From a virus: DNA of 64,000 nucleotides. The DNA lies in the IMG/VR virus record IMGVR_UViG_3300005511_000001; one strand, given 5' to 3'. Position 1 is the first letter of the stretch, and each line of letters opens with the position of its first letter. Under the pieces are notes generated by a model. It searched no databases and had not been told where the DNA came from. It saw only the letters and a program-made list of their open reading frames with translations. This document shows positions 2,113-32,261 of this stretch, in pieces. The translations under genes and the position numbers were made by a program.

Positions 2113-2576
2113 TATTTGCCTCGCTTGAACAGTGCGCGGTCGGCGAGGTAGATGCCCAGCGCGGCGCCGCAGACAGACCAGCCGTTCTCGTCCAGCACCC
2201 ACCACTTGAAGTAGTGGCCGCTGATCATGCCCACCGACCAGGTGGCCACGGCCGGCCGGATAATGCCGTTCCACAGATCGACCAACCATACACCGGTGGC
2301 CGTTGTGGTGCCGCGCACGGCCGTCAGCCAGCCGTCGGCCTCGATGCGTGAGATATCGGCCTCGCCCTGCACGCGGATAGTCTGAACACCCAGCTCGGCC
2401 TGCAAGCGTATGGCGTCTTGGTTGCGCAAGTGCGCGGCGGCGTCAAGTTCACCCTGCAGGCGCATGCGCTCGATTTCGTGGGTATGGTCTTGCCGGGCAG
2501 TCAGCCAGGATGACAACTCGCCCCAGATCATGCGGAAGACAGAGCCCCCGAGGAAGGAAATAAGTGCGGACAGCAT
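2112..2576 (-). CDS. Putative holin (3TM/GTA-holin-like)
   Basis: Hydrophobic N-terminus, coiled coil, W...IRP.VATW and C-terminal hydrophobic segments; directly upstream of lysozyme. Confidence 0.6.
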   Translation of the reverse strand: MLSALISFLGGSVFRMIWGELSSWLTARQDHTHEIERMRLQGELDAAAHLRNQDAIRLQAELGVQTIRVQGEADISRIEADGWLTAVRGTTTATGVWLVDLWNGIIRPAVATWSVGMISGHYFKWWVLDENGWSVCGAALGIYLADRALFKRGK

Positions 2577-2589
2577 CAGAAGACTCCTT

Positions 2590-2892
2590 TCATTTCTTCG
2601 CGCGCTCGAGCGTGTCGATGCGCAGTGTGAGATTGTCGTTGGCACGCTCCAGGCCGAAGATCTTGTCGCGCAGGCCGTCGATGCGCGTATCGCGATCATC
2701 GAGGCGCTTCTCCAGCTTCTGGTTTGTGATGACTAACTGGTCCAACTTGTTCGACTGGCCGGCGATATTCCAGAGGGTCGCGCCAAGCATAAAAACAATG
2801 GTGGCGGCCGAGCTCAGCAGCCACGAAAGCGGGACTCTCATATCCACGAATTGGCGATCCTTTTCTTCGGTTGTGGTAGAGCGTGGGCTCAT
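2590..2892 (-). CDS. Membrane-anchored coiled-coil lysis-region protein
   Basis: Single TM (WLLSSAATIVFMLGATLW) followed by heptad coiled coil. Confidence 0.65.
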   Translation of the reverse strand: MSPRSTTTEEKDRQFVDMRVPLSWLLSSAATIVFMLGATLWNIAGQSNKLDQLVITNQKLEKRLDDRDTRIDGLRDKIFGLERANDNLTLRIDTLERAKK

Positions 2893-3146
2893 TGGGTGAC
2901 CTCCACCTCGCTGGCCGGCGGCACCTTCGGCACGAAATTGACGCCATTCCAGGTGTAGTCCGACGCAATGAAGCCAGCCGGCACCTCGATGTTGAGCAGT
3001 TCGTATGCGCCGATCACGCAGACCGGCAAGTCAGCGCCGGGCGCGTTATCTGGTGTGCCGGTGGACCAAGCTCGCAGCCGGTCGCCCAGCTCTTCTATGC
3101 GCCTAAACGGGCCGAACAATCCTGCGTCGGAGGAGATAATCGTCAT
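2889..3146 (-). CDS. Small tail-fibre-associated protein
   Basis: Coupled overlap after the tail fibre gene; 85 aa. Confidence 0.55.
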   Translation of the reverse strand: MTIISSDAGLFGPFRRIEELGDRLRAWSTGTPDNAPGADLPVCVIGAYELLNIEVPAGFIASDYTWNGVNFVPKVPPASEVEVTQ

Positions 3147-5293
3147 GCGAGCCTCAGTTTCTGAATGTGGAGGTTGAGGGATGGTGCTGAACCGCTGGCC
3201 GCCCAGAGAACATCGTTTTCCTCCGAGAGGCTTGTGTAGTTGAGCGGCGTATTAATGAAGCGGACGGGCCCGACGGTCGCCTCGGCAAAGCCGCCGACGC
3301 AGTCGTACTGCAGGCTCGCCTTCGTGCCATCGAGTACCGCCATCACGCGGCTGGAGCTGCGCATGGTTGATCGCGCCTTGCTGGACTTTGGGTACAGCGG
3401 GTCATTGGCGGCGAGAGCTTGGCCGAAAGTCGCCATGCCCGGCATGCGCCATTCGTCGATGGCATTGTCCGGGTTGAGGTAGACCACGTCCGCCGCGCTG
3501 GCCAGCTGCCACTGACGCCCCATCAAGTAGACGGGCACATGCGCGGCGGACATGTAGCCGGTGGCGGTCGCCGCCGCGGTCGGCGTACCGCTCGGGAACG
3601 AGACCGACGTAAGCTCCGAGAGGAACCTGCCGCTCGCGTCGGTACCCGACACGGCCACCTGCAGGTTCGCGCCGGCCAGATCGAATGCCATGCTGCCGGT
3701 GGCAAAAGTATTGATGGTGGTGATCAAAGTCTGCACGATCAGCTGACTGGAGAAGGCGGCCACGGTGCCGCTCAGGCTCAGGCGCGCCACGCTGGCCTTG
3801 GTATTTGTCAGCGATACAGCCCACAGCGCGTTGGTGCTGTCATAGCGCACCGCGAGGCCGGAGTTGCTGGTGATGGTGGTCGTGGCAGAGGTGCCCGGTG
3901 TGAGCGTGGTATTACTTGGCGTCAAAGTCAGCGGCTTAGCCGTCAACACCGTGCTGCTAGTCGTGGCCAGCGCAATGACGTTGTCGGTACCCGCCACCGG
4001 CAACACGGCACCCCACGATCCCGTCGTAGTGGTGGTATTCGGAGACGCGGAGACGGAAACCGAGGTGCCGCCAGAGATGAGCACACCATATACCGCGAGC
4101 GAGGTGGTCGAAATCATCGTGGCGAGAACGAAGCCGGTACTCAGCGTGCCGACAGGAAGCAGGTCCACAATCCGTGCCGCCGCAGAGCCCAGTGTGGTCG
4201 CCGTCGGCGAGTTCGGGGTCAGGCCGGCCCCGGAGATTTGCAGTACCATCGTCTGCAGCGCGGTGGTACCTGCCGGGCAGGATGCAATTAGTACGTCGTC
4301 AGCGCCATTGTGCAACGCGGCCACCCCAACGGTCGCATCCTCGCCGGCGGCACTCATTGCCGCACGGATCAGCACCGAGGTGCCGAAGTTGCCACTGGAA
4401 TCAACTACCACTGCATGCAGCGATGCACCGTGCACCAGCAGTAGCGTATTGCCGCTATCGAGCTTGAACGATTTGATGTAGATTCCGCTGGTGCCTGCCA
4501 CGACGGAACTGAACGCGACCTTCGCCATCACGTCGGTACCATACGACCGGCCGCCGGCGCTCTCGAGAATGCCATTGACAGCATGCAGCCGGACTTCTTT
4601 GCGCGGCCCCATATACGCGAACGTGCCACCGCTCACGGCGCTGTCTACACGCACATCATGCCCGTAGCCACCGGTGACATTTTGCAGCACAAGCGCATCC
4701 GGACCCGGGATGCTCGTCACGTTCTCGTCTACAGAATAAGCTGCACCAGGCCCAGCTGCTGCCATGCTTTGATAGCGCTGCGCGACAGGCGTGTTGATGA
4801 AGCTCGAGCTGCTCGACTGAAGCGAGTTGCCCGTATCGCGAGCCCCGGGTGCCGAGAGCGTGATAGTCCAATTGTTGTATGTCCCACCACCGGCTGCACG
4901 GGTCACGGAAACAACGAGGACACCAGTTGCCGAGTTATAGGATGTGACGGCGCCATTCATCCAGGTGGTGCTGGGCGTGGACGTCCGCGCGATCGTAACC
5001 CACATCCCTGGCACGATCGACTTGCCGGTTTGGATGGTGAAAGTCTTGGTGCCGGAGGAATTGCTAACCGAGCTTGTAGACGTCGCGCTCGTGTTCGGTG
5101 CCGCGATAGCCGCTGCCGCGCTGAGCGCCGCCGCTGTCTCAGACCCTGCGGCTGCGGTGACACGCGCCAGGAGCTCAATCAAGGAATCCTGAATCATCGG
5201 GAAGAAGTATTCGGAACTCCCTCCGTCGTTCATATCCTTCGCGGTCGAGCCGTCGTCGGAGTAGGTGTTGCCATTTACAGTGACTTGAGTCAT
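3143..5293 (-). CDS. Tail fibre / receptor-binding protein
   Basis: 716 aa, Thr/Ser/Ala/Gly-rich beta-type sequence, last large gene of the tail module. Confidence 0.75.
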   Translation of the reverse strand: MTQVTVNGNTYSDDGSTAKDMNDGGSSEYFFPMIQDSLIELLARVTAAAGSETAAALSAAAAIAAPNTSATSTSSVSNSSGTKTFTIQTGKSIVPGMWVTIARTSTPSTTWMNGAVTSYNSATGVLVVSVTRAAGGGTYNNWTITLSAPGARDTGNSLQSSSSSFINTPVAQRYQSMAAAGPGAAYSVDENVTSIPGPDALVLQNVTGGYGHDVRVDSAVSGGTFAYMGPRKEVRLHAVNGILESAGGRSYGTDVMAKVAFSSVVAGTSGIYIKSFKLDSGNTLLLVHGASLHAVVVDSSGNFGTSVLIRAAMSAAGEDATVGVAALHNGADDVLIASCPAGTTALQTMVLQISGAGLTPNSPTATTLGSAAARIVDLLPVGTLSTGFVLATMISTTSLAVYGVLISGGTSVSVSASPNTTTTTGSWGAVLPVAGTDNVIALATTSSTVLTAKPLTLTPSNTTLTPGTSATTTITSNSGLAVRYDSTNALWAVSLTNTKASVARLSLSGTVAAFSSQLIVQTLITTINTFATGSMAFDLAGANLQVAVSGTDASGRFLSELTSVSFPSGTPTAAATATGYMSAAHVPVYLMGRQWQLASAADVVYLNPDNAIDEWRMPGMATFGQALAANDPLYPKSSKARSTMRSSSRVMAVLDGTKASLQYDCVGGFAEATVGPVRFINTPLNYTSLSEENDVLWAASGSAPSLNLHIQKLRLA

Positions 5294-6153
5294 CAGATAA
5301 GTTCCTTCAGTTCGAAGCCGACGTTGTTGCGGGAGTGAGTGGGGTATTCGATGGGGCTCAGCGTGCGCATGCGTGCAAGGAACTGGCGCCGGATGGCATG
5401 GATCGTGTCGGCAGGGTCATGGATCCAGAGCACCTCCTGATCGACGCCGCCCTGCCCTTGAATCTCGAAGGCGTTGGAAAAAATCTCGTCTTCGTCGAGC
5501 AGGTTCAGTGCGACCTTCTGGATCCGGGTCGGATATCGATGCTGGTAGTACTCCGCGCCGCTCAAGGCCGCATAGACTTCGGTCGTGGTTTCCCATCCGA
5601 GCGAAGTCCCGTCGTAGCTCATGTTGATGCTCGGCTGCCAGGCGTCGCCGATGAACATGCGACCGATCTGAATAAAGCCAGCAGGGTTCGCTGAATCATC
5701 GAACTCGATCAGCCAGTACCTGGTGTACTTGGAAGCCGGCATGATGTGGATCAGCTCGGATACGTAGCGCTTGCGCTGCTCGGCCGTGTACGTCCGGCTC
5801 CACCAGCCCTCATCCTTCCAGTCCAGCGTGTTGAGGCCGTAAATGACCTTCCAGACCCTCGTCCATCCGGAATCGTAAATGGCAGTGGCGTAGCTCGCAT
5901 CACTGAATGCACGCGCGCGAAACTTCGACTTGATCGACAGGTTGTGGTACCGCCAACTGAGCAGCCGGACCTTGCGGTTCGCGCCAAGGTCCAATTTGAA
6001 TTGCGTGCTGGTCAGAGCCAGATCAGCCGAGCGCGCCACGTCACCCAGCGTGCGAGTCTGCAGCTTTTTTAGCGGCAGCGAGGGCATCCACGAACCTCCA
6101 GTCAATGCGCCGGCGTCGATGCGATTGGGGAACCCGATCATGCAATTAGCCAT
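5293..6153 (-). CDS. Tail tip / distal tail structural protein
   Basis: 286 aa between hub-like gene and fibre; aromatic-rich beta-sandwich-like sequence. Confidence 0.65.
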   Translation of the reverse strand: MANCMIGFPNRIDAGALTGGSWMPSLPLKKLQTRTLGDVARSADLALTSTQFKLDLGANRKVRLLSWRYHNLSIKSKFRARAFSDASYATAIYDSGWTRVWKVIYGLNTLDWKDEGWWSRTYTAEQRKRYVSELIHIMPASKYTRYWLIEFDDSANPAGFIQIGRMFIGDAWQPSINMSYDGTSLGWETTTEVYAALSGAEYYQHRYPTRIQKVALNLLDEDEIFSNAFEIQGQGGVDQEVLWIHDPADTIHAIRRQFLARMRTLSPIEYPTHSRNNVGFELKELI

Positions 6154-19606: not shown

Positions 19607-20962
19607 TTAGCCCAGCAGCAGAGCGATGTGCTCGTTCTTTGCTGCCTTCACGCCCCATGCCAAGCCGATCTCGTACTTGATCTGGCGGTACATTTTGTAC
19701 ATCGCAACTTGGTACACGAGGCCGGACAGCGGGTCGACCAGCTCGATCACGTCGTCGGCCATGTCCATCGGCTTGCCATCCGGGCCGACCGGCATGGCCG
19801 GCGCACGGGTGATCAGCTGGATTGCGTTGCGGTTGAACGCCACGTTGCCGGTGTAGCTGTTGCCGACGGTCATGGCTTGAGCCGATGCTGGAAGGGCTTG
19901 TTGCAGACCAGGTGCTTGCAAGGTGATTGGGCCGGGCGCTGCGGTACCTACGGCGACGACGTATTTGTTCGGGTCGCCCGCAAAGGTTACGACGTCACCC
20001 GGCAGCACGGTGCCGGTACCGGTGATCAGGTTGATCACGGTGGCGCCAGCAGCGTAGCCTGCGGTGTTGCTGGTGTAGCCGGAGCCAGTGCCTTTGGTGA
20101 AGGTCTTGATCTGGCCCGATTCGTGTGGATAGAAACCATCCACTGGCAGCGCGATCGAACCAGTGCGCAGCAGAATGTCGGAACCAGCCTCATTGACCTT
20201 GAACAGGCCGGCCTGCTTACCACGCAGATTCGCCGCAGCGGTGGTGTTCATCACCATCTGCAGATCGGTCTGCGGCGCGCCGTTGTCGATCAGAATCTTT
20301 CGCGACTGGGCGAAGTCCGACAGGTCGGCAGCAGTACCGAACGGCGTGGTGCCGGCGGTACCATAAGCGCGGGAGGCGCCAATGGCCAGCGCGGCCAAAT
20401 CGGCCTCCACGGCGTTGGCCAGCGTGCGGAAGCCTTGGGTGAACTGGTCCAACAGCGTGGTGTTGAAGGTGCCGGCGTTGATCTGGCTACGCTGCTCCTC
20501 GCCGCCCCATTTCACCTCGTAGGCCTTCGACTTCGAGATGGTCATCGTGTTCGGCACGATGGCTTGATCGCCAGTGTTTGCTGGCGTAGTGCCAGGCGTA
20601 ATGTCAATCAGCGAACCTTGCGGAGTCACTGGGATGGTGATCACCTGCCCCAGCGCGGCCTTCTCGCCACTGGAGTTACGCGCAACGGCTGGGATGAAGC
20701 CGACAGCTTCACGCGAGACGGTGTCCAGTGCTTGGAACATCGTAGGGATCAGGCCGGTCAGGGTGTTGGCACCCAGCATCAGGCCAGTTTCAGCCATGTG
20801 GTTGCGTAGATGAGCGCCCGCGATTTCGGCAAATGCCTTGCCGAACAGTTCAGTCTTGCGTGCCGCCTCGTGGCCGAAGCCAGTGACCTCGGCGAACAGT
20901 TGTACGGCAGGTGCCAGCGCCAGGGCGACAAATGCCGCCAGCGCGAAGATAATCATCTTCAT
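19607..20962 (-). CDS. Major capsid protein, P22 gp5-like, with N-terminal hydrophobic extension
   Basis: ANTLTGLIPT..ALDTVSRE.VGFIP core; Y.QIKYEIGLAWGVKA C-terminus; GAAAGG SD before first ATG. Confidence 0.9.
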   Translation of the reverse strand: MKMIIFALAAFVALALAPAVQLFAEVTGFGHEAARKTELFGKAFAEIAGAHLRNHMAETGLMLGANTLTGLIPTMFQALDTVSREAVGFIPAVARNSSGEKAALGQVITIPVTPQGSLIDITPGTTPANTGDQAIVPNTMTISKSKAYEVKWGGEEQRSQINAGTFNTTLLDQFTQGFRTLANAVEADLAALAIGASRAYGTAGTTPFGTAADLSDFAQSRKILIDNGAPQTDLQMVMNTTAAANLRGKQAGLFKVNEAGSDILLRTGSIALPVDGFYPHESGQIKTFTKGTGSGYTSNTAGYAAGATVINLITGTGTVLPGDVVTFAGDPNKYVVAVGTAAPGPITLQAPGLQQALPASAQAMTVGNSYTGNVAFNRNAIQLITRAPAMPVGPDGKPMDMADDVIELVDPLSGLVYQVAMYKMYRQIKYEIGLAWGVKAAKNEHIALLLG

Positions 20963-21106: not shown

Positions 21107-21907
21107 TTAGTCGGTTACTACGGCCCCTTCCTTCATGGCCGACTGCTTATCCTGCGGGCTCATGGTGTCAAACGCGGCGCGGGTAATGGTCTTCTTGCCA
21201 TCGGCCGTCTTGCCGCCAGGTTGTGCGCCGCCGCCCGAAGCGCCTGAGCCTTTGAGGATCATGTCTTTGTTGCAGTACTGGCCGACCATCACTTCGATCG
21301 CTTCTTCGAAGTTCGCGTGTTCGCCGTGACGGGTCGCCGAGAACAGCGGATTGCCGTTCGCGTCCAGCGCGACCAGCTTGCCGCCATCGACCTTGAAGCG
21401 GTCGCCGAAGACTTTCTGGGCGATATCGGCCGGGATGGCTAGCTTATCGGCGATGAATTTGGAGCCGGCGAAGCTGCCGCCGACGATGTGGTTATTCAGG
21501 TCCTGCGTCAGCTTTGCGTTCTGCTCGGTCAGCGTGCGCTCTTTCTCCACGGCGGCGCGGGTGGCGGCCTCGACCGATTCCTTGGCCGATTTGGCGGCAG
21601 CATCTTTGATTTCCTGCACCTGGGCTGCCGTCTTGAGCTCGCCCGCGTTCAGGTTTTTCACGGTCGCCAGCGCTGCGGCAGCGGCGGACGGATCTTCAAT
21701 GCCGGCGTCGCGGAATGGCTTCAGGGCCAGTTCGGCGGCTTCCTTTGCCTCGCGGTGTGCCTTGGCTTCGCCGTTCAGGCGGCCGATATTGGCGACAGTG
21801 GTGTCGGCGTCGAACGGGGCTTCAGCGCCGTCCTTATTGATGTAGATCGGCAGTTTCTTTTCGGCGTCCATCGCAATGGTGCCGTCGGAGTTCAGTTTGA
21901 ATGGCAT
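21107..21907 (-). CDS. Capsid scaffolding protein (DUF6651-like)
   Basis: PIYI..DG.E.PFD, coiled coil, IPAD.AQ..FG..FKV..G, C-terminal ITRAAFD.MSP. Confidence 0.75.
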   Translation of the reverse strand: MPFKLNSDGTIAMDAEKKLPIYINKDGAEAPFDADTTVANIGRLNGEAKAHREAKEAAELALKPFRDAGIEDPSAAAAALATVKNLNAGELKTAAQVQEIKDAAAKSAKESVEAATRAAVEKERTLTEQNAKLTQDLNNHIVGGSFAGSKFIADKLAIPADIAQKVFGDRFKVDGGKLVALDANGNPLFSATRHGEHANFEEAIEVMVGQYCNKDMILKGSGASGGGAQPGGKTADGKKTITRAAFDTMSPQDKQSAMKEGAVVTD

Positions 21908-21984
21908 GGTGCTGGTCTTTCCGGGCATCCGCCCTATCGATGGCCGTCCGGCCGTTGCGCCGCGCTGCATCCGCTTGCGGCAAT

Positions 21985-22013
21985 AAAAAAAGCCGCCAGG
22001 TTGCCCAGGCGGC
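21985..22013 (-). terminator. Intrinsic terminator after the MuF/small-ORF cluster
   Basis: Minus strand GCCGCC-N10-GGCGGC-T7. Confidence 0.7.
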
Positions 22014-22044
22014 CTTTGGAATAATCTTCGGAATAAATTGTGGT

Positions 22045-22257
22045 CTACTTCGTCGTTCCGTCGCTCAACACAAAGTGAGCCGGCTGCTGGCCGTGCGCGA
22101 CGAGGTCAACCTTGCGGATCGCTGCACCGCCGGGAAGCTTGACACCTGCGGCACCCATCCCCAAAGCCTGCAGCTGCGCGAGCGCCACCGCCAGCCCGTC
22201 AACTGTGAGGTCGGGCGGCAGCGGCTCGGTGAGCAGCGATTTGGCGTCGAAGGTCAT
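22045..22257 (-). CDS. Small hypothetical protein (candidate immunity)
   Basis: 70 aa, ATGA-coupled. Confidence 0.55.
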   Translation of the reverse strand: MTFDAKSLLTEPLPPDLTVDGLAVALAQLQALGMGAAGVKLPGGAAIRKVDLVAHGQQPAHFVLSDGTTK

Positions 22258-22487
22258 TTCGAAAGCCTCGGGTCGTCTGGCAGCAGCACATCGCGGCAGT
22301 CGCCGTCGTAGAAGCAGACCAAGTCATCGCCCTTCAGGTCTTCTTTGCGCTTCCACATCAGGTGTTTGCCAACCTGCACCACAAAGCAACCCTCATACCC
22401 CGCCGGCGGAAACATGCGCGCGTTCAACTCTTCCGGCGAAGGAAGAAGCGCGCCGTCCAGTGGTTGGTCGTCGAAGAAGGTAGTCAA
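22254..22487 (-). CDS. Small acidic protein (candidate immunity)
   Basis: TTG start overlapping the MuF stop (TTGA), GAGG SD; 77 aa, Asp-rich. Confidence 0.6.
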   Translation of the reverse strand: MTTFFDDQPLDGALLPSPEELNARMFPPAGYEGCFVVQVGKHLMWKRKEDLKGDDLVCFYDGDCRDVLLPDDPRLSK

Positions 22488-24187
22488 GATGCCTCGCGTG
22501 TGTATTTCAGCCCCAGCTTCGGAGCGGCGCGCAACCACTGGAGGTGATAAATCTCGGTGGTGGCGTATTTGGCGGACAGTTCTCCAGCCTTCACCATTGT
22601 ATCAACATCTCGGCGCGCCGCAGCTTCCTCGCGCTCGAATGCACGCTTGATTGTCGCCTCTGCTGGCCATGCATCGACCGGCTCGAGGATGTGTCGGTAA
22701 CCGGGCGACACAGCGCGCAGCTCTGACAATCCTGCGAACGACCCGTTGCGCACGTCGGCGACCGAAAAGGTGCTGCCGGCCGGATGGTTGTGTGTGAACA
22801 GCGCCCCGTCCATCGACTTGAGCTCGCCGACCGTGTAAGCCACCCGATCAGGCTGGCCGGAGCGCACCAGCAGCATCTTGCCGTCCTTACCGAAGAAAGC
22901 GCCGGTTTCGTGATCGTTGCGGCGGATCGTCTCTTCGAACTTCACCGCCGCGGCGCGCGCTGGCGTAGAAACGTCGGCCGCCACGCGCTTGTGGCCCGGA
23001 TCGTAGATCGTGAACTCGCCCTTCGGCTGCTTGAATACGCGGCTCGGATCGTACTGTGCGCGCAGGTCGTCCAGTTTCAGCGGGCGGCCCGACATATCGA
23101 CCAGCTCTCGTGGCGTCAGCTTGCCGGCGCGGAACAGTTCTGCCCTGCCCTTGCCAAGCGTTGCGTCCTGATAGGCCGGGCCCATGGCCTTGAGGAAATC
23201 GGAGAAGCTCGTCTTCGCGCTGATCGGACCAGCTGCCGAGGCACGCTGCCCCGGCTCAGGATCGTCCATGTCGATGCCCATCTCGCGCAGCGACTTCATC
23301 AGTGCGATCTCGGCGCTGCGGCAATTCCAGTGGCGCGGGACGCCGCCGAGCCACGGCAGGTCGTTACCGTTGATCGGCTCGTATTCCCAGTTCCAGCACG
23401 CGCCGCTGTAAGCGATGCACGTCAGGCTGGTGTGGCTATCCAGCGTGCTGACCTGCATAAACCCGTTGGTCACATCCTTGTTCAGCTCGAGAGTGGCGTG
23501 GCGCGCTGCAGCGGAGACCGCCGCCATGCTGGTTTGCACTACGGCTGCGGCGTTCTTCTTCGCCAGCGGCATGACCCCCGGTACGCCTGGCAGAATCTCC
23601 GGCGTGGCAGGCGTCTTGGCGGTCGGCGCCGCCGGCGCAACCCTGGCCTCTTCGCCAACGATGCGCTTGATGATCTGCGCATTCGTCTCGCCTTGGGCGG
23701 CGCCGATGCGGATCTGGCTGGCCACCTTGAACTGCGTGTCCTGCTGCAGGCGCAACCACCAGTTCTTGGCCGGCGAGCCTTGGATCAGCGTATCGCTGGC
23801 CAGCTTCTTGAGGTAGGCGTCGGTAGGCATACCCATGCCGAGCCGCACGTCAGCGCTGATAGCCCCCGGCGCCGCGCGCTCGATCACGCTGGTCAGCGCC
23901 TTGCGCACCGCCAGCGCCTCAACCTCGGCCACGCCGACCAGGTCGACCTGCAACTGCGCCTCGGCATAGTACTTCGCGATCAGCGCGTTCGAATCGCGCA
24001 GCACCGCGGCCTTAGCTGCCTTGTTCATTTCGGTGAGCTCGCCGGCGTTCGCCAGCATGCCCACCAGATCCTTCTGCATCAGCACCAGCAAAGCCAGCAC
24101 CTTGGCCTTGATCTCCGCCTCAGCGCGCAGCATGTTGATGCCCGCGCCGAGCAGCGCCTCAAGCAGCCATTCTTCGAGCGCACCCAT
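22484..24187 (-). CDS. MuF/SPP1 gp7-like head morphogenesis protein with C-terminal JAB-like domain
   Basis: STLDSHTS..C, P.HWNCRS, QDATLGKGRA.LF MuF motifs; extension contains FTHNHPAGSTFSVAD. Confidence 0.85.
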   Translation of the reverse strand: MGALEEWLLEALLGAGINMLRAEAEIKAKVLALLVLMQKDLVGMLANAGELTEMNKAAKAAVLRDSNALIAKYYAEAQLQVDLVGVAEVEALAVRKALTSVIERAAPGAISADVRLGMGMPTDAYLKKLASDTLIQGSPAKNWWLRLQQDTQFKVASQIRIGAAQGETNAQIIKRIVGEEARVAPAAPTAKTPATPEILPGVPGVMPLAKKNAAAVVQTSMAAVSAAARHATLELNKDVTNGFMQVSTLDSHTSLTCIAYSGACWNWEYEPINGNDLPWLGGVPRHWNCRSAEIALMKSLREMGIDMDDPEPGQRASAAGPISAKTSFSDFLKAMGPAYQDATLGKGRAELFRAGKLTPRELVDMSGRPLKLDDLRAQYDPSRVFKQPKGEFTIYDPGHKRVAADVSTPARAAAVKFEETIRRNDHETGAFFGKDGKMLLVRSGQPDRVAYTVGELKSMDGALFTHNHPAGSTFSVADVRNGSFAGLSELRAVSPGYRHILEPVDAWPAEATIKRAFEREEAAARRDVDTMVKAGELSAKYATTEIYHLQWLRAAPKLGLKYTREAS

Positions 24188-25638
24188 TATTCAGCGGCTG
24201 GCGCAGGGGCCGGAGAAGGTGCTGGCGTCTTCGAACCTGGCATTGGCACCTCAAACACTGGCCCCTCCAGCGCGAGCTTGTCCTGCACGTCTTTCCAGAC
24301 TTTGTCCGGGTTGATGATGCCGTAGCGCTGCATCTCTTCGAATGCCGACTCTTTGTCGAGCAAGCTACTGTTGACCAGCTGGATCAGCGCCAGCACGAAC
24401 GGGCCGGCCGTGGCCAGCAGCGCGTCGGAAGCGAAGTCGTCGAAGATATCGACGGAGCCTTTGTACTCCATCTTCTTCATGATGTGCATCATGTCGAGGG
24501 CATTGTCCAGCGCATCCTCAAGCCCTTGCGTCATGCGCGAGAGTTGGCATTGCTGCTCGGTGTTCTCGATGTTGTTCTGGGTCGCGGTCGTGCTCACCTG
24601 CGTCTCGACCAGTAGTTCCGCGCCCATTGCGCGCATCTGATTTTCGAGGTCCTGCAGAGATTCGCGGCCAGCAGTGATTGCGGCGCCGGTGTGCTCAACG
24701 TACTTCGCCTCGGCACCGATCGGCAGACGGAGATACGACTTCGCGCCGATTTCGACCTTGTCGTCGTCCTGCAAACCGGTGATCGCCAGGAGGGGGACGC
24801 GCGCCGTGTGCAGGATCGAATCCTGATCGCTCGTTGACTGCCAGTGCTTGATGTTCAGGTCCGCAAGGTCGTTCAGAGGCGGCGTCGCCGTCATAAAGCC
24901 CGTGCGCTTCGTGTAAAAGGTGACCATCGGCACGAAATCCAGCGTAGTGACGCCCTCCTTGTGCAACACCCAAGTATCCTTCTGTGTGTCGCGGCCTTTT
25001 CGATAAGTAGCCCAGCGGCCCGGTTCGAGCACGCGGATCTGCTCAATGCTCTTCGAGCCGAATTCACCCTCTGCCGCTGGCTCGGCGACGCACTCCATGA
25101 AGCGGACTTGCCCGATCACCTGCGCACCCCCCTTGCCTTTGATCGGCACGGCGTCGATGATCTGGTTCGGCTTGATGTGAACGAAGTACGGGCGCACGCC
25201 GGCGGCATCCTCAGCCGCCTTGGTCGGGTAGAGCTGGTTGCCCTGCTCGTCCAACGTCACCGGATAGTCAACCAAGATGTGCGTCATGCCCTTGGCCAGC
25301 CCTTCGGTGAACACGCTGTGGGCGAACACGGTCATGTTGTTGCCGCACTGGTCGATATCTTCGAGCCACTCAGCCGCAACAGGATCAATTTCAGTGAACG
25401 TGATCGCCTCGGCGAACGGCTTTGCCGCCATGTTCTCGAGCGTGCGGCCCAGGCCATTGAACAGCGTCGAGGTCTTGACGCGGTAGTCGTAACTTTCCTG
25501 GTCCTCAGCCGGGAACTTCGGCAAGTACAGCTCACGCGCGGTGCGCATCGCCTTGGTGCCGCCCAGCAGCGCATCGATCTTAGCCCAATCGGGCTGCATC
25601 GCGGCGATTGCTGCAGAGACTTCATTGACCTTGGCCAT
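24187..25638 (-). CDS. Portal protein (DUF4055-like)
   Basis: LGGTKAMR...YLPK...E....Y..R, PPL.DLA.LN..HWQ..SD motifs; follows terminase. Confidence 0.9.
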   Translation of the reverse strand: MAKVNEVSAAIAAMQPDWAKIDALLGGTKAMRTARELYLPKFPAEDQESYDYRVKTSTLFNGLGRTLENMAAKPFAEAITFTEIDPVAAEWLEDIDQCGNNMTVFAHSVFTEGLAKGMTHILVDYPVTLDEQGNQLYPTKAAEDAAGVRPYFVHIKPNQIIDAVPIKGKGGAQVIGQVRFMECVAEPAAEGEFGSKSIEQIRVLEPGRWATYRKGRDTQKDTWVLHKEGVTTLDFVPMVTFYTKRTGFMTATPPLNDLADLNIKHWQSTSDQDSILHTARVPLLAITGLQDDDKVEIGAKSYLRLPIGAEAKYVEHTGAAITAGRESLQDLENQMRAMGAELLVETQVSTTATQNNIENTEQQCQLSRMTQGLEDALDNALDMMHIMKKMEYKGSVDIFDDFASDALLATAGPFVLALIQLVNSSLLDKESAFEEMQRYGIINPDKVWKDVQDKLALEGPVFEVPMPGSKTPAPSPAPAPAAE

Positions 25639-25650
25639 AGCTTCCTTGCT

Positions 25651-26934
25651 TCAAATTCTGAGCGTGCCGGACTGCACAGTGCGCTTGACGATCGGGTACC
25701 GCTTCACGATGAAGTAGCCGTTTGCGTCGTTCGGGTGATCGTGCCCGGACTTCTTGTCCGGCTCGCCGCTCTTGTCGTAGACCTGCTGCTCCAGCGCCTC
25801 GGTAGTGGTCGGGCAAAGGTCGGTGTTGATCTTCCAGCGGCGCTCGCCGTCGGCGCTCAGGATCACGCCGTTGTAGGCGTTGATCCGATCGCGCACCGCT
25901 GGGTTGGTGTGGTTGACCTCAATCTGAAAGCCAGCGGCGCGCAAGATAGTCAAGTCCGACTCTGCGGCATTCTTGCTGCTTGTGCTCGCACCCGAGGCGT
26001 CGGGGTATATCTTGATCTGGTGCCCCTTGCTGCCGAAATCCTCCTTCAGGATCCGCGCCATGGTCGGCGTGTCGCGCACCTTCACGCGCTCGGCCAGCGT
26101 CAGCGGCAGGCCCTCGCGCACAACGTTGATGCACGCGGTCATGTTGTTCACGTTGAAGTCGAGGCCTACCTGCAACGGCTCGTTCGGCAGGATAATCTGG
26201 GTCGTGCGGTTCTTCTCGCGGTCGAAGTCTGGGTACACGCTGCCGCTGGTCAGGTTGGTGAACTGGCCGCGCAGGTACGCACTGATTAGCGCCGGCGGAT
26301 AGCTGGCCAAGAGCGACGGGATGTAGTCCGCCGGCAGGTTCAGCTCGTTGTCGAACGTGCTTGCCTGGATGAGGCCGTACAGCGACGCCAGTGCAGGTTT
26401 GTCCCGCACCGCCTTCACGAACTGCTGGTAGACGAACTTAAAGCCCTCGGGCGTGGTCGTCACGTCGATGCCGTTCAGTAGGCCAGGTACGTTGTAGCGC
26501 ATACGCGCGATGATCTTGCGCCAGGCCGTCTCGGCCTTCTTCATCGGCATCACGTCCAGCTCGTCGATCAGCGCGTGTCCGATCTTGAAGCCGACGATGG
26601 TCTCCGGTTTCTCCATCGACCGGCAGATGACCGTGCCGCGGTAAAGCCGCCCTTCGTAGACTTCGACCTCGTGGTCGCCCTGCTTCACCTTGATGCGCAG
26701 GCCCATCGCATACGCAACCTCTTCCATCGTCGGATAGAAGATATCGCGAATCTGCGGATAGGTTGGCGCGAAGTAGCCCTGGCTGATACCTGGCCACTGC
26801 CAAAAGTGCATGCAGATGCCCACACAGCCGACGAACGTCTTACCGGACCCGAAGCCGGCCACATAGGCCTTGTACTTGTGCGGCAGGTTGAGAAAGTTCG
26901 CCTGCGGGACGTTCAGCTCAAGCTGCGGGGTCAT
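25651..26934 (-). CDS. terL: Terminase large subunit
   Basis: Walker A AGFGSGKT, Walker B LIDELD, nuclease GLDFN and DHPNDA.GY. Confidence 0.95.
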   Translation of the reverse strand: MTPQLELNVPQANFLNLPHKYKAYVAGFGSGKTFVGCVGICMHFWQWPGISQGYFAPTYPQIRDIFYPTMEEVAYAMGLRIKVKQGDHEVEVYEGRLYRGTVICRSMEKPETIVGFKIGHALIDELDVMPMKKAETAWRKIIARMRYNVPGLLNGIDVTTTPEGFKFVYQQFVKAVRDKPALASLYGLIQASTFDNELNLPADYIPSLLASYPPALISAYLRGQFTNLTSGSVYPDFDREKNRTTQIILPNEPLQVGLDFNVNNMTACINVVREGLPLTLAERVKVRDTPTMARILKEDFGSKGHQIKIYPDASGASTSSKNAAESDLTILRAAGFQIEVNHTNPAVRDRINAYNGVILSADGERRWKINTDLCPTTTEALEQQVYDKSGEPDKKSGHDHPNDANGYFIVKRYPIVKRTVQSGTLRI

Positions 26935-27379
26935 CGCGCTTCGCGGCGTCCTTCACGCCGATGATGATCTGGACCGGGGTTGGCGGCTGGTCGTTCGGCT
27001 CCGCCTTGTTCTTGTTGACGAACACGTCGCCGACCTCCTTGGCGGCCTGTTCGATCACCTGCACGGCCAGCGCGATGTTGCGCATGCCCTCCGCCTGCTG
27101 CGCCATCCGGCCAAGCGCGCGCAGCCGAAATGCCCGACTCGCAATCGGAATCTCCGCCACGTCGTCGCGAAACTTCGTGCGGGTGTCGTAGAAGATCGTC
27201 TTCCACTTGTCGCTGAGGCTGCGGCCGACGTACTTCTCCGGATCATATGCAGCGATCTGCTGACGCGGCACTTCGAGGCCAAATTCCTCTTTTACTTGCA
27301 CTGCGACCTGCGTCGGCGTGTCAAAGCAAGCCAGCGCCTTGACGATGAACAGCTTCACCTCGTCTTTTAATGCGGCCAT
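26918..27379 (-). CDS. terS: Terminase small subunit (DUF2280-like)
   Basis: LACFDTP.QV..VKEEFG..V.RQQ...YDP pattern; upstream of terL. Confidence 0.85.
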   Translation of the reverse strand: MAALKDEVKLFIVKALACFDTPTQVAVQVKEEFGLEVPRQQIAAYDPEKYVGRSLSDKWKTIFYDTRTKFRDDVAEIPIASRAFRLRALGRMAQQAEGMRNIALAVQVIEQAAKEVGDVFVNKNKAEPNDQPPTPVQIIIGVKDAAKRDDPAA

Positions 27380-27410: not shown

Positions 27411-28055
27411 TTATGCAGCCTTCAGCAGACAGGTTCCGCACGCCCTCGCTATGTTGATCTTTGCCACCTCCGGGGTGGCGTTTGCCGCGGCAACCAGCTG
27501 GGCCAGCGTGCCTTCAGGATGGCCGATGCCGTAGCGGCGGACCACGCCGACGAACTCTTCCACGTCATGGCCGCGAAGGAACAACTTCGGCATGCCGTCC
27601 TTGGTGAAGGCCGGGCTGCCGAATGCATCCTGCTCCTGGCCAATGTGGTAAAGCTCGTGTTCCAGCAGCGCGCAGAACTCGGCGTCGGAACAAGTCAGGC
27701 AGTAGGTGGCGTCCAGCGTGATCAGGTAATCCGGCACGCGGCCGAACCAGTCCGCCATCTGCTGTTGCTGGCGTCCCTTCTGCCACGGCCCACAGCGGAA
27801 CGTCATCTCCTCGCACTGGCCGATGACCGTGCGGCCCTGCTTCTGGAAGCTGCCGGGAGCCCACAGGAACTGCACGTCGCAGTACTCCAGGTGGGCGTGG
27901 TCGGGATTGTGCAGGTGGCCGCCCTCGGTAAGGATCTCGGCCCGGGCCCACGTGAGCACTTCAGGCGCGGCGATGAAGCGGCAGTTCAGAGGGTCGGCGA
28001 ACATAGCCGGCGGCACCGGGCGCGCAGCACGTTCTGCGGCTGAGTTCTTCGCCAC
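27411..28055 (-). CDS. Putative phage metallopeptidase
   Basis: LLEHELYHI (HExxH) and HDVEEF motif. Confidence 0.8.
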   Translation of the reverse strand: MAKNSAAERAARPVPPAMFADPLNCRFIAAPEVLTWARAEILTEGGHLHNPDHAHLEYCDVQFLWAPGSFQKQGRTVIGQCEEMTFRCGPWQKGRQQQQMADWFGRVPDYLITLDATYCLTCSDAEFCALLEHELYHIGQEQDAFGSPAFTKDGMPKLFLRGHDVEEFVGVVRRYGIGHPEGTLAQLVAAANATPEVAKINIARACGTCLLKAA

Positions 28056-28057
28056 TG

Positions 28058-28303
28058 TTACAGCGCGTCGACCGCCAGCATCACCGGCGGCATGGTTACG
28101 CCGAGCACGGTCAGTGCGATGGAGCCGCCGTCGGTCAGCATTGCCAACTCGTTCTCAGACGGTTTCCAGTAGCTGACCAAGGCGGGCATCCCTTCGATTT
28201 CGATACGGGTAATCGGCAGCGCATTGCACAGCAGATGCGCCTGATCCCATCCATCTGGCGCGCCGAGAACTGCGTTGTTGGTATGGTGCTGGTGCTTGTT
28301 CAT
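28058..28303 (-). CDS. Hypothetical protein
   Basis: GGAG SD before ATG 28303; 81 aa; LGAP.GWD, SYWKPS..EL..L..GG pattern. Confidence 0.7.
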   Translation of the reverse strand: MNKHQHHTNNAVLGAPDGWDQAHLLCNALPITRIEIEGMPALVSYWKPSENELAMLTDGGSIALTVLGVTMPPVMLAVDAL

Positions 28304-28662
28304 ATGCACTCCTGGTGTTCAGCGAACTACTTCGAGGGTGGCCTTAACCAGTTATGGGGAAGGTGCTATTCCCAGCATGCCACATACCCAATTTTGTCGC
28401 CGCCCGCTCCGGGCTGGAACCTCCGGGCAACTTGCAGCGCGCCCTTCGGCCGGACCCACCCGGTATTGTTTCGTCAGCGACTGCGCCCGCTTTCTAAGCT
28501 CGCCCGCTGGAGCGCGATGGACGGCCACACGTGAAAGTTTGAAGCTCACAAATTCCCGCGAGGACGGAGCCGGTCACCGAAAACGGTTTTGCAAACAGTG
28601 CGATCCACGCGAGGATGAAATGGTGCTACATTGGCTTCACAGATCACTAACCGGAGAATCCC

Positions 28663-28875
28663 ATGAACGAAGCAGCCCTTTTTAACAAACGCGATGATCG
28701 CTACCAACAACTCGACCGTATGCTCTCTAACCGACATAGTGGCAAAGCAATGGCGTCGCCTCTACGGGCTAGTCGCGTCGTCGCTCTGATCTACGGCTAC
28801 CACAGGTGGATCGACAAAATCGTTTTTTCGAGGGTACGTGTCAACGCCCCACAGGATCATCATGATGGCGAGTAG
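28663..28875 (+). CDS. Possible small antisense moron
   Basis: GGAG SD and 70-aa ORF; no recognisable motif. Confidence 0.35.
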   Translation: MNEAALFNKRDDRYQQLDRMLSNRHSGKAMASPLRASRVVALIYGYHRWIDKIVFSRVRVNAPQDHHDGE

Positions 28876-28891
28876 ACTCATGCATCACCTC

Positions 28892-28921
28892 AAAAAAAAA
28901 ACCGCTGCGTGAAAGCAGCGG
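28892..28921 (-). terminator. Strong intrinsic terminator downstream of tRNA-Thr
   Basis: Minus strand CCGCTGC-TTTCAC-GCAGCGG-T10. Confidence 0.85.
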
Positions 28922-28953
28922 CAAACGTACAGCAGGGGTTGAACTGGGAAATA

Positions 28954-29029
28954 TGGTGCCATCACAAGGATTCGAACCCTGGACCCGCTGCTTACAAGGC
29001 AGCCGCTCTTCCACCTGAGCTATGACGGC
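28954..29029 (-). tRNA. tRNA-Thr(UGU), phage-encoded
   Basis: Full cloverleaf: GCCGTCA acceptor, GCTGC-CTTGTAA-GCAGC anticodon arm, TTCGAAT T-loop, 3' CCA. Confidence 0.95.
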
Positions 29030-29270
29030 ACGTCCAACACTATGTGAAGTGCAGGCTAGAACCTATTTCTCGACATTGTCGAGGGCCCGTACAACCAAGG
29101 TAACTCGTCGGTGAGTGAACCTTTTGATGGTTGTCACTTTCTACGTTGCTATCCCGCCGTTGGCGCGCTGTCAAACCGCGCAATGTAGCGAGTCACTAGA
29201 ATTAGGTGCCGGGTTACAGCGTCCCAGCGGCCGGTCTGGCGCGCGGCCTCGCGAACTGGCGCGAAAATAG

Positions 29271-29294
29271 AAAAAGCCACCGCAAGGGTGGCTT
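29271..29294 (-). terminator. tR'-like terminator
   Basis: AAGCCACC-N5-GGTGGCTT stem plus T run on minus strand, about 155 nt downstream of the pR'-like promoter. Confidence 0.75.
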
Positions 29295-29433
29295 CGATTG
29301 GTGCTCCAGCGCTATCTGCGAAGTGAGCTGTACACGCGAGCGAAAGCATCAACGGGTTGGTGCTAGCCTCGAATCTCGGTTATCGGTGAGGCTCGAAGCC
29401 TACATTACGAGTGCCGAGAGTGTGTATGGCTGG

Positions 29434-29463
29434 ACGTTAACGTACTCAAGTGGAAGCTGTCAA
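29434..29463 (-). promoter_or_regulatory. pR'-like late promoter
   Basis: TTGACA-18 nt-TAACGT on minus strand, upstream of terminator, tRNA and late genes. Confidence 0.65.
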
Positions 29464-29498
29464 CTACCTCCGAGGCGAGCATACCTATATATCTCGAT

Positions 29499-30566
29499 CT
29501 AACCTCTAGCAGCTTTAACGACGCTAGCTACCTGATCTAGTCCATCGAACATCGACACCGACTTGTCCTCGCTATACGATATCGGGGAAAAAATTATAGT
29601 CTCGAATTTTTGCAACAGCTCTTTATTCTGTTTGAGGTCATCTGCATACTTCACATAGCGCTGAATAAACTGACAAAGTGTTTTGCGAAGCTCAATCTGA
29701 AGCAACTGAGCTTTACAGGCGTCAGCACTTTTCAAGAAAACGCGATAGAAATATATAAACAAGAAGGTTGCGCTGAACGTGACAGCGATGAATGCAGACA
29801 CTAGTGGAGTACTAGCAGCCAAGACCTGCTCGCGGTGGGTGAATAATAAGGAAATATCGAAACCTACTGGCATTAATACAGCGAAGGCTAAGACCACCAT
29901 CATAATCCGAGTTCGAAGAAGCTCCGCTTTCTTGGATTTTGATAGGTCATTAAAGCCACTAAATAAGCCTACAAAATTAAAGGCGTCGCGTTGCTTCTCG
30001 AGCATTGATTGCAATTGCTTTACCGTAGCGGTTTGATTCTTCAAATCACGCTTCCACTCCTTAACCTTTCCGTGTACATCCTGGGCAATCTTGGGTACCT
30101 CCTTGAGATCCGCGACTGCGGTGTCACTCAGCAAGGACTTAAGCAGGGCCGCGGGAAGGCGCACTTGGCCAAACTCAATAATAGCCTTTGCTTGCGAATT
30201 AAATAAGTCTCGGTTTTCATCGACGAAATTTCGATACTCCCGAAGATCGTCTGAGAGCTCGTCTTGAACGCACATATCGTATTCACACACGACGACAAAA
30301 AAAATAGCAAGATATAGGTCTAAATTAAGACTACGAACATCAACATTGGTAAAACTTACGTCTTTGATCATGCCACCAAATCGACCGGTGGAGAAATGGC
30401 AGAACTTATCGAATTCTTTCGTATTTTGGATAAATATTTCGATAACGCGCGCCAGGTGTTGCGCCTTCCTCTGTGTGTGATCTCCCTCCGCAAAGTTTAG
30501 CGAGCTGGCTATCGCAAGCAGATTTTTCAATTTCCCCAGAGTAGCTTCTTCTTGGAAGAACATCAT
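29499..30566 (-). CDS. AT-richer moron: coiled-coil plus 2-TM membrane protein
   Basis: 355 aa, visibly AT-rich, GGAG SD, two TM helices (IMMVVLAFAVLMPVGF; LVSAFIAVTFSATFLFIYF). Confidence 0.85.
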   Translation of the reverse strand: MMFFQEEATLGKLKNLLAIASSLNFAEGDHTQRKAQHLARVIEIFIQNTKEFDKFCHFSTGRFGGMIKDVSFTNVDVRSLNLDLYLAIFFVVVCEYDMCVQDELSDDLREYRNFVDENRDLFNSQAKAIIEFGQVRLPAALLKSLLSDTAVADLKEVPKIAQDVHGKVKEWKRDLKNQTATVKQLQSMLEKQRDAFNFVGLFSGFNDLSKSKKAELLRTRIMMVVLAFAVLMPVGFDISLLFTHREQVLAASTPLVSAFIAVTFSATFLFIYFYRVFLKSADACKAQLLQIELRKTLCQFIQRYVKYADDLKQNKELLQKFETIIFSPISYSEDKSVSMFDGLDQVASVVKAARG

Positions 30567-30637
30567 GACACTCCATGCGTTACAAAATTACAATAATGCA
30601 AGAAGAGTCTGCAATAGGCAATAGATTTGACGCTTGG

Positions 30638-30724
30638 TTAGGCGTTCCGGAGCGAAACCGCGGCACGCGTATTATGTGACTGCAGCATCCCTTCAAGCTC
30701 ACTGACCATGTCCAGCACGCGCTC
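30638..30724 (-). pseudogene. Displaced original 3' end of the Q gene
   Basis: Encodes ERVLDMVSELEGMLQSHNTRAAVSLRNA*; 21/28 aa identical to Q residues 153-180. Confidence 0.9.
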
Positions 30725-32261
30725 AGGTCCCGAATAGATCATCAATCGAACAATAACGGCAGCTCGCGAACTCCTCAGGCGTCTCCTCGCGCATCACAAG
30801 TATGGGATAGTGAACAACTTCGACTGGCAAAAGATAGACACCGCGCACAGCCGAGTTTGATGGCTCAAGTTGGATTGCGATGACGAAATGAATTCCTGCG
30901 ACCTCGCGTAGTGGGAAACTCCAACGGTATGGCCGATCCACGCGATTGCGGCGCGCCCGGACGACAAGCAATCGCGTGTGGGCGGCGCCGTTCAAAACGA
31001 ACGCGTTCTTCGACGGAAGCGGATCGAATGACCCGCCTGCGGCTGTCACACATTCTTTGATCTTTGCCATTGCGTCGTTGCGGATGGTCTCGATCTTGCG
31101 CAGGCTTTCCAAGTAGCGCTCGGCCCGCTGTGTTGCGGGCACGCCTGCCAGTCGGTATGCGTTGCTCAGCGTCTGGAAGCGGTTGAGGAAGGCGTTGTGA
31201 TGCGGCCCGTCGGGATAATCGTCGATCAGCTTCGTCGAGATCACGCCGTGCTGCGCGTAGATTTGTCGGAGAATATTCAACAGCTCCTGCCGCGTGTAGC
31301 GTTCCGCACGAACCCGGCGGAGCTCCTGAGCACGATTGAAGGTATCCGGATCAATCAAGGAGGCAAAGGCGCGCGGCTTCCTGATCCACGCGTCGCGAGG
31401 ATTGTCGTGGACCTGGCCCTGCAGTTTGTACGATTTCCGGTTGTAGACCACCGTGCCGATATACTTCTCGTTTGTCAAAATGCTGACGATCACCGGCGGG
31501 GTCCATGGTCGACCAGCATCCGAGACGATGCCGCGAGAATTGAGCTCGGCCGCTATCGCAGTGTCGCCTTTCTCGCCGCTCACATACCAGTCGTAGATTT
31601 GGCGAATAACGGCCACCTCTTCGTCCGGGCCCGGCACGAAGACCACGTGATCAGCGGGTGCCCCTTTTCGATCACCGGCAACCAGGATCCGACGAATTTC
31701 ACCGTTCGGTTTGACCGACGCGCGCCGAAGGCCATATCCTGCTGGGCCACCTTGCTTAAAGCCAGACTTTACGAGGCGTGTCTGTGCCTCAAACACTTTC
31801 ACGGACAGGGCGCGACTGTACTCAGCCGCCATGGCGCGCTTCATCGTCTTGACGATGGCTGCTATCGCAGAGCCATCGTTATCGAATTCCTCCGCACAAT
31901 AAACCACGTCGATCCCGGCGTTCCGACAGAGGAACTCGTAGTGTGCGCTTTCGTCGACATCTTGAAAACGCCCCCACCGGCTAACATCGTAGACCAGAAT
32001 TACGTGGTACTCGACGTCCGTACTGGTGACGTCGGCCAACAACCGCTGCAGACCTGGTCGTCCTTTTATCCCCAGCCCGCTCTTCCCGGGGTCTGAGTAC
32101 TCGGAGACGACCTCTATTCGGTGGCGGCGAGCGTACGCGGCGATGGCCGCCCGCTGGTTCGCGATTGAACCCGCCTGCCCATCCGATGACATTCGAAGGT
32201 AGGAAGCAGCCTTCTTACCTACCAACGCGCGGGTGCTGCGCGTGGACTTACTTGATGGCAT
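30723..32261 (-). CDS. Large serine recombinase (resolvase plus recombinase domain)
   Basis: YLRMS catalytic motif, D.G.SG....GRPGLQRL, YDVSRWGR, EYSR.LS.KV, GG..GYGL, L.NE.Y.G..V.N; GAGGTG SD. Confidence 0.93.
   Translation of the reverse strand: MPSSKSTRSTRALVGKKAASYLRMSSDGQAGSIANQRAAIAAYARRHRIEVVSEYSDPGKSGLGIKGRPGLQRLLADVTSTDVEYHVILVYDVSRWGRFQDVDESAHYEFLCRNAGIDVVYCAEEFDNDGSAIAAIVKTMKRAMAAEYSRALSVKVFEAQTRLVKSGFKQGGPAGYGLRRASVKPNGEIRRILVAGDRKGAPADHVVFVPGPDEEVAVIRQIYDWYVSGEKGDTAIAAELNSRGIVSDAGRPWTPPVIVSILTNEKYIGTVVYNRKSYKLQGQVHDNPRDAWIRKPRAFASLIDPDTFNRAQELRRVRAERYTRQELLNILRQIYAQHGVISTKLIDDYPDGPHHNAFLNRFQTLSNAYRLAGVPATQRAERYLESLRKIETIRNDAMAKIKECVTAAGGSFDPLPSKNAFVLNGAAHTRLLVVRARRNRVDRPYRWSFPLREVAGIHFVIAIQLEPSNSAVRGVYLLPVEVVHYPILVMREETPEEFASCRYCSIDDLFGT

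Follow-up and report, generated by a model that had tools for sequence, protein, structure and literature searches.

A RadC-like JAB domain and its small partner gene form a mobile cassette behind a phage MuF head protein

Introduction

What is a predicted hydrolase domain doing at the tip of a phage head protein, and which of the small genes behind it belong with it? The question is raised by the virus record IMGVR_UViG_3300005511_000001 of IMG/VR, of which 64,000 nucleotides (nt) of one strand were analyzed (hereafter the window). Its minus strand encodes a head protein of 567 amino acids (aa; 22484-24187), directly downstream of the portal gene. The MuF core of this protein (residues 1 to ~372, positions 23070-24187) is followed by a JAB domain, and two small open reading frames, ORF-A (77 aa, 22254-22487) and ORF-B (70 aa, 22045-22257), come next on the same strand. 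To our knowledge, phages have few ways of bringing protein into a cell along with their DNA, and MuF-borne cargoes are one of them; we know of only a handful of cargo activities tested so far, e.g., those of (p)ppApp synthetases. For decades there has been dispute over what JAB domains of the RadC branch do biochemically.

MuF/gp7 proteins are capsid-internal, portal-bound and found with effector fusions (PMC5576092; PMC5512222; PMC3482391), and a precedent is known in MuF polymorphic toxins, whose genes are followed by small immunity ORFs (PMC5576092; PMC3482391). An earlier description of the window, made from its letters alone (the sequence-only reading), assigned the locus to this class, with both small ORFs as partners of a virion-packaged JAB effector, either a toxin or a deconjugase acting against ubiquitin-like defenses.

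The JAB tip and ORF-A as a mobile cassette

The JAB tip and ORF-A form one cassette of 812 base pairs (bp), which was present or absent as a unit in closely related phages. The same MuF-JAB gene, ORF-A, and ORF-B were found in a near-identical IMG/VR locus (L001; MuF core 87%, JAB domain 90% identical). In ten further IMG/VR loci (L002-L011) the MuF cores were 80-91% identical, the protein stopped at ~381-390 aa, and the JAB tip was absent. When six of these (L002, L003, L005, L006, L008, and L009) were compared to the window by blastn, homology ended at ~23070-23076 and resumed exactly at 22257, the ATG of ORF-B; 812 bp in the window (22258-23069, minus strand) replace ~43 bp of the close relatives. 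ORF-A was absent from all ten short-MuF, JAB-less relatives. ORF-B directly followed MuF in nine of the ten, and the sequence of the other (L004) ends before that position. With L001 and L019 included, ORF-B stood right after the MuF gene with or without the JAB domain, again leaving aside L004, where the sequence stops short. Because the relatives lack both the JAB domain and ORF-A yet keep ORF-B, only ORF-A can be counted with the tip. The proposed toxin-immunity layout, in which relatives would swap the tip together with both downstream ORFs, therefore stands for ORF-A, which co-varies with the tip, and falls for ORF-B, which is kept without it.

The linkage extends to more distant loci. 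An ORF-A homologue was found beside the tip in all 13 loci with a JAB identity of at least 40%, compared to none of the ten tip-less relatives. In every locus of that identity range (L001/L016-L028) it lay within 0-3 nt of the JAB stop, from an overlap to +1 nt. One of these loci (L019) encodes a window-type MuF protein with JAB tip and ORF-A. A second MuF lineage (533 aa; L017, L018, L020-L024) has a core only 27% identical to that of the window, a JAB domain 46-63% identical, and an ORF-A homologue downstream; the disparity is largest in L017 (core 27% vs. JAB domain 63%). Four loci (L025-L028) carry free-standing JAB genes of 187-192 aa, each paired with an ORF-A homologue. The tip is indeed polymorphic, as had been supposed: it is missing from ten relatives with highly similar cores and shared with a carrier whose core is highly diverged. 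By the measures that apply to MuF polymorphic toxins of the type of Jamet et al., the C-terminal extension has 195 aa (threshold at least 100 aa) and varies among phages sharing the MuF core, and a small downstream ORF (<150 aa) co-varies with the tip in the case of ORF-A but not of ORF-B.

The identity of the carrier as a MuF head protein was borne out. Residues 5-380 matched PHROG 241 'head morphogenesis' (E 4.6e-81), and the gene abuts that of the portal, which together place the protein with the MuF/SPP1 gp7 minor head proteins; Pfam Phage_Mu_F (PF04233) scored 24.6 bits, under its cut-off of 29.6. Relatives of the MuF core were found in >700 phage records, none of which covered the last third of the protein.

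The position of the JAB gene in a head module, a weak match of the MuF core to PHROG 595 'head maturation protease', and the lack of a dedicated prohead protease between the portal and capsid genes could mean that the JAB domain is a morphogenetic or processing protease, acting on the scaffold, the capsid leader, or MuF itself, with ORF-A as an assembly chaperone. We regard this as very improbable, given that ten phages with cores 80-91% identical lack the cassette, their portal, scaffold, and capsid-like ORFs being homologous and identically ordered, and that the cassette also occurs free-standing and in unrelated head modules. The existence of close relatives without it implies that the cassette is dispensable for head assembly, and an essential role in head maturation is thereby ruled out.

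Fold and affinity of the JAB domain

Residues 381-567 (P0001; 22487-23047, minus strand; pI 9.3) contain the HETG sequence with the predicted catalytic glutamate E427 (22907-22909) and, further on, the string FTHNHPAGSTFSVAD with H466, H468, S475, and D478. The predicted metal site, HNHPAGSTFSVAD, lies at 22754-22792 on the minus strand and was supported by the alignments to homologues and to YicR. Both the upstream glutamate and the motif string are thus present, as had been described. The motif had been given as HxH-x7-S-x2-D; its metal and catalytic set was confirmed, but the second histidine and the serine are separated by six residues, not seven. Across the family this loop has 5 to ~19 residues, with six in 146 of 183 domains, and the metal motif is retained in essentially every domain copy. 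Comparison of the family profile to Escherichia coli YicR/RadC by hhalign (probability 70.6%, E 3.9e-5, 66 columns, from beta1 through the strand that follows the metal helix) aligned the metal site to the YicR HNHPSG..PS..D string, pairing HNHPAGS-TFSVAD with HNHPSGCAEPSKAD; the single one-residue gap in this alignment explains the difference between the two spacings.

An alignment of 45 diverse free-standing homologues (A1; domain number + 380 = full-protein number) showed E38, E47, G56, H86, H88, P89, S95, D98, and V113 to be invariant, and R42, N87, R111, H168, Y182, and R184 to be nearly so. Every invariant residue is intact in the window, which rules out decay of the tip to a pseudogene. 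The AlphaFold2 (AF2) model built on A1 had a pLDDT of 95.4, and E427 (E47) stands in it before the first beta-strand (48-52). Among solved structures, the Foldseek-independent VIA search ranked PfJAMM1 (Z 6.6), Cap3 (6.3), RadC (6.0), Sst2 (5.7), and Rpn11 (5.4) highly. The top eight matches (Z 5.1-6.6) were all JAMM/MPN proteins except for one ATIC chain, and nucleotide deaminases, which have the same fold, ranked below Z 5. The five top matches in Foldseek were chains of RadC 2qlc (prob 0.95-0.99; best prob 0.99, E 2.5e-3). Structure search and comparison of hidden Markov model (HMM) profiles agree on the JAB fold that had been proposed for the C-terminal domain. We conclude that residues 381-567 are a JAB/MPN+ domain closest to the RadC clade and outside PF04002 by that model's own threshold. 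From sequence and model it is predicted to be an intact metal-dependent hydrolase domain of the JAB/MPN+ superfamily.

With RadC/YicR (PF04002; 2qlc) the domain shares the HNHP..S..D metal motif and the fold. PF04002 weakly matched six of the 45 homologues (best E 0.031), and a multi-copy relative, P0032, reached the model (28.8 bits, E 1.3e-6). Unlike RadC, the window domain misses PF04002, has a loop one residue shorter, and comes with an obligatory small partner gene; its N-terminus is extended by QPxGxFTxYD, and three further helices are added at the C-terminus along with a last strand, H548, Y562, and R564 being conserved.

Scans of the tip with Pfam, NCBIfam, PHROGs, and PADLOC gave no matching model, and sequences in the PDB matched only by chance, whether the single domain or the profile was the query. 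A search of genome contigs for related loci, with the single domain as query, returned nothing. The domain resembles Tox-JAB-1 (PF15659) and Tox-JAB-2 (DUF4329) of polymorphic toxins of the Rhs and type VI secretion system (T6SS) kind in being a divergent C-terminal JAB module with a dedicated small partner, those toxins having dedicated immunity proteins. It differs from them in its carrier, which is MuF here as opposed to Rhs, T6SS, and type VII secretion system proteins, and in its partner, the immunity families there being Imm65 and Imm-NTF2-2. The Tox-JAB-1 and Tox-JAB-2 HMMs matched neither P0001 (E up to 10) nor any of the 45 homologues (E up to 1). An Atlas similarity of 0.79 to Toxin-JAB1 is a lead at best. 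Tox-JAB-1 and Tox-JAB-2 are predicted nucleases, not deubiquitinases, and the carriers listed for them do not include MuF (PMC3482391).

The structural matches also bring to mind a packaged isopeptidase that would strip ubiquitin-like modifications laid down by host defenses, such as Cap2 of type II CBASS or the Bil/Bub systems, on phage entry. The domain has the full E-HxH-S-D catalytic set of peptidase JAMMs, and its matches include PfJAMM1 (5ld9, Z 6.6), Cap3 (9ild, 6.3), a bacterial ubiquitin-like (Ubl) deubiquitinase (8tyy, 5.0), and BubCD (9ea5, 4.9), which have the same catalytic residues. Tandem, diverged, and intact JAB copies in polyvalent proteins would be in keeping with an arms race in which host targets vary. 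Against this, the Z-scores do not set Cap3 apart from RadC or PfJAMM1, the links at the sequence level are to RadC-type JABs only and none to peptidase JAMMs was detected, and nothing was matched in PADLOC, whose models cover known defense systems. Neither a Cap3 or BilC/Bub sequence model nor a ubiquitin-like substrate, E1, or E2 was found for the domain or nearby, neither ORF-A nor ORF-B resembles a ubiquitin-like protein, and the context is that of a virion protein. According to the authors who classified them, RadC-type and toxin-type JABs lack the groove for the Ubl tail (PMC5512222; PMC3482391), and a harmless deconjugase would have no obvious need for a conserved, coupled partner. The deconjugase directed at CBASS or Bil, one of the two options of the sequence-only reading, found no specific support, and we hold it to be decidedly unlikely.

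The JAB family in viruses

Exhaustive HMMER searches with the JAB domain detected 1,758 representative clusters (50% identity) at E <=1e-3. Among the 164 best representatives, 87 were free-standing, 58 were longer proteins with a C-terminal JAB domain, and 18 had two to four copies, with the motif intact in every copy of the latter. The long proteins add MuF or Phage_min_cap2, ADP-ribosyltransferases (DRAT, ADPrib_exo_Tox), 2H phosphoesterase, XkdF protease, DnaJ, and inteins. They resemble in this the RadC domains of polyvalent proteins in phages and conjugative elements, multi-domain virion proteins that likewise carry ADP-ribosyltransferases (Iyer et al., 2017, PMC5512222); the polyvalent protein is a pattern of injected virion effectors (Iyer et al., PMC5512222). 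Two cultured phages have the domain: in Dorea phage DO134P1, TerS, TerL, and a 447-aa hypothetical protein at the portal position are followed by a 502-aa protein ending in a JAB domain, and in Aphanizomenon phage CL131 the domain stands as a gene of its own within the head-tail module. The best structural matches in BFVD were unnamed proteins and 'Minor capsid protein' entries of gut-virome phages. An intein (Pfam Intein_splicing) separates the core from the tip in two MuF-JAB proteins, P0049 (880 aa) and P0079 (810 aa).

A motif-guided scan identified 245 viral loci with a JAB domain, of which 80 were retained for analysis. The domain was almost always at the extreme C-terminus across these 80 loci. 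At 56 loci (43 distinct sequences), an ORF of 40-140 aa started -25 to +40 nt from the JAB stop. At least three classes can be told apart among these translationally coupled partner ORFs: the ORF-A type (FYDGD ... PDDPR), a type of ~70 aa with CxxC...C (~20 loci), and a short acidic type of ~50 aa. No Pfam family was found for the partner ORFs of the viral JAB loci. When 62 JAB domains were placed on a quick maximum-likelihood tree, their partner classes were clustered (19 changes vs. 37.6 in shuffles, with none of 200 shuffles as low), and the ORF-A class lay within one clade (SH-aLRT 96). Such clustering is compatible with cognate pairs.

Copy number varied as well. Six loci (L029, L041, L066, L072, L075, and L093) have two to three tandem intact JAB copies per protein and a single small partner ORF. 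In L089, two consecutive genes (2030-4501 and 4432-6045; 823 and 537 aa) both terminate in a JAB copy.

ORF-A and the proposed function of the cassette

ORF-A was correctly described as a 77-aa acidic ORF coupled through a TTGA overlap: its TTG start, at 22487, overlaps the MuF stop, and its pI is 4.5, opposite in charge to the JAB domain. Searches with its sequence returned only ten close homologues. P28, W45, G62, D63, V67, L68, P70, and D72 are invariant in the ORF-A alignment (A3). The AF2 model, of low confidence (pLDDT 68.5), has a small beta-hairpin and a conserved, extended acidic tail. No solved structure matched this model at Z >=2, which does not show a new fold, since the model is of low confidence. 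Scans of Pfam, NCBIfam, PHROGs, and PADLOC assigned no family to ORF-A or ORF-B. We consider ORF-A to be the cognate partner of the JAB tip.

By analogy with MuF polymorphic toxins, the MuF cargo JAB is probably a virion-carried effector and ORF-A its cognate inhibitor. As in the systems described by Jamet et al. (2017, PMC5576092) and in the 'MuF phage-capsid-like' class of Zhang et al. (2012, PMC3482391), the N-terminal carrier is a MuF protein encoded beside the portal gene, its C-terminal extension of >100 aa is kept in some relatives and missing or swapped in others, a small coupled ORF lies downstream, and the context is a prophage. In contrast to the described MuF polymorphic toxins, the cargo is a JAB domain, for which a toxin role is suggested by analogy. 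Like other MuF cargoes, the JAB domain would become part of the capsid by way of the binding of MuF to the portal, would enter the next host cell along with the phage DNA, and may there hydrolyze a host target early in infection. ORF-A, presumably co-made from the same late transcript, would bind the basic JAB domain and keep it inactive in the producing cell, as an immunity or keeper protein. Our guess is that the substrate is a nucleic acid or a nucleotide, in view of the RadC affinity and the family-specific conserved residues R422, R491, H548, Y562, and R564; a ubiquitin-like isopeptide appears less likely.

Several observations weigh against an effector with its own inhibitor. Z-scores of 6.0-6.6 are in the middling range for the tool, and since they are middling when taken alone, the JAB assignment was drawn from the fold, the invariant catalytic set, and the hhalign result together. 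PF04002 (RadC) gave no match to the window domain at E up to 10 (gathering score 22.1 bits). The clustering of partner classes on the JAB tree could stem from shared descent alone. Proteins with two to three JAB copies have one small partner each, which is a poor fit to 1:1 immunity. No sigma-70-like promoter was found for ORF-A, and there is therefore no sign of a classical immunity gene active in the lysogen. The missing promoter and the single partner of the multi-copy proteins lean slightly toward a keeper during late expression or assembly over an immunity protein of the lysogen.

ORF-A could also be a cofactor, a packaging adaptor, or a substrate of the JAB domain, the latter still being a virion-carried effector. 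The linkage data show association only, even proteins with two to three JAB copies have one partner, and the low-confidence model of a hairpin with an acidic tail is as expected of a peptide that folds on binding. We find such a role unlikely, as at least three unrelated or barely related partner classes beside a conserved catalytic core are more typical of inhibitor or immunity pairs. A bolder and rather doubtful extension of the effector-inhibitor reading is that the JAB clade is a major class of capsid-injected counter-defense enzymes with a novel JAB chemistry, the partner classes being dedicated stoichiometric inhibitors released or left behind at packaging. Examples of such chemistry would be the hydrolysis of a modified nucleic acid or of a nucleotide used in defense signaling.

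The RadC-like JAB domain is a new cargo for the known MuF delivery system; the layout, JAB toxins, and polyvalent RadC domains have all been known. Our literature search found no described MuF-JAB fusion or phage JAB anti-defense protein. JAB is not mentioned in the survey of MuF polymorphic toxins, where many proteobacterial MuF extensions were left unassigned (PMC5576092); the present family is probably among them. The present analysis maps the indel junction exactly, tells ORF-A apart from ORF-B, and distinguishes three partner classes. The cargo family is large, widespread over phage groups, and without a model in Pfam, NCBIfam, PHROGs, or PADLOC. The natural pairs of closely related phages with and without the cassette offer a ready genetic test of RadC-like JAB function, and the conserved partner ORF is a handle for its biochemistry.

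ORF-B and the head module

The 70-aa ORF that had been placed next was found as described, at 22045-22257, coupled to ORF-A by an ATGA overlap. Its occurrence independently of the JAB tip rules it out as the immunity protein, and we consider it a conserved, separate, lineage-specific gene of the head module. In the window and L001-L011, ORF-B is conserved through HFVL(S/T)DG and then continues into unrelated tails of 3-14 or more residues. At its position after ORF-A, the second MuF lineage encodes a conserved 74-aa zinc-ribbon protein with CxxC...CxxC (L017:4815-5039; L018:4282-4509; ~4723-4947 in L020-L024), which belongs to PHROG 15916 (function not given) and has weak Lar-like and Anti-TRAP-like matches.

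The portal, MuF-JAB, ORF-A, ORF-B, scaffold, and capsid genes are all on the minus strand in one phage head module with a prophage context. In the order of transcription, the module consists of the small terminase (26918-27379), the large terminase (25651-26934), the portal (24187-25638; DUF4055, PHROG 145), the MuF-JAB gene with ORF-A and ORF-B, the scaffold (21107-21970; DUF6651, PHROG 206/784), and the major capsid protein (19607-20962). The terminator expected after the small ORFs is present on the same strand at 21981-22017, where a G+C-rich hairpin (21988-22017) is followed by a U7 run; it closes the portal-MuF-ORF-A-ORF-B unit and precedes the scaffold gene. The hairpin was 95-97% conserved in L002 and L005.

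Close relatives have a variable cargo slot between ORF-B and the scaffold gene, in which unrelated ORFs of 89-263 aa lie beside the conserved terminator hairpin (L006:5379-6170, L007:5342-5611, L008:4609-5058, L009/L011:5395-5667). The equivalent part of the window (~21975-22045) is empty. Just upstream of the small terminase gene, a 214-aa ORF (27411-28055, minus strand) has an HExxH motif (HELYH), which suggests a zinc metallopeptidase. A tRNA-Thr gene (TGT; 28954-29029, minus strand) lies within the prophage, with the late-gene region on one side and the head module on the other, where the G+C content falls from ~62% to 53% (28001-32000).

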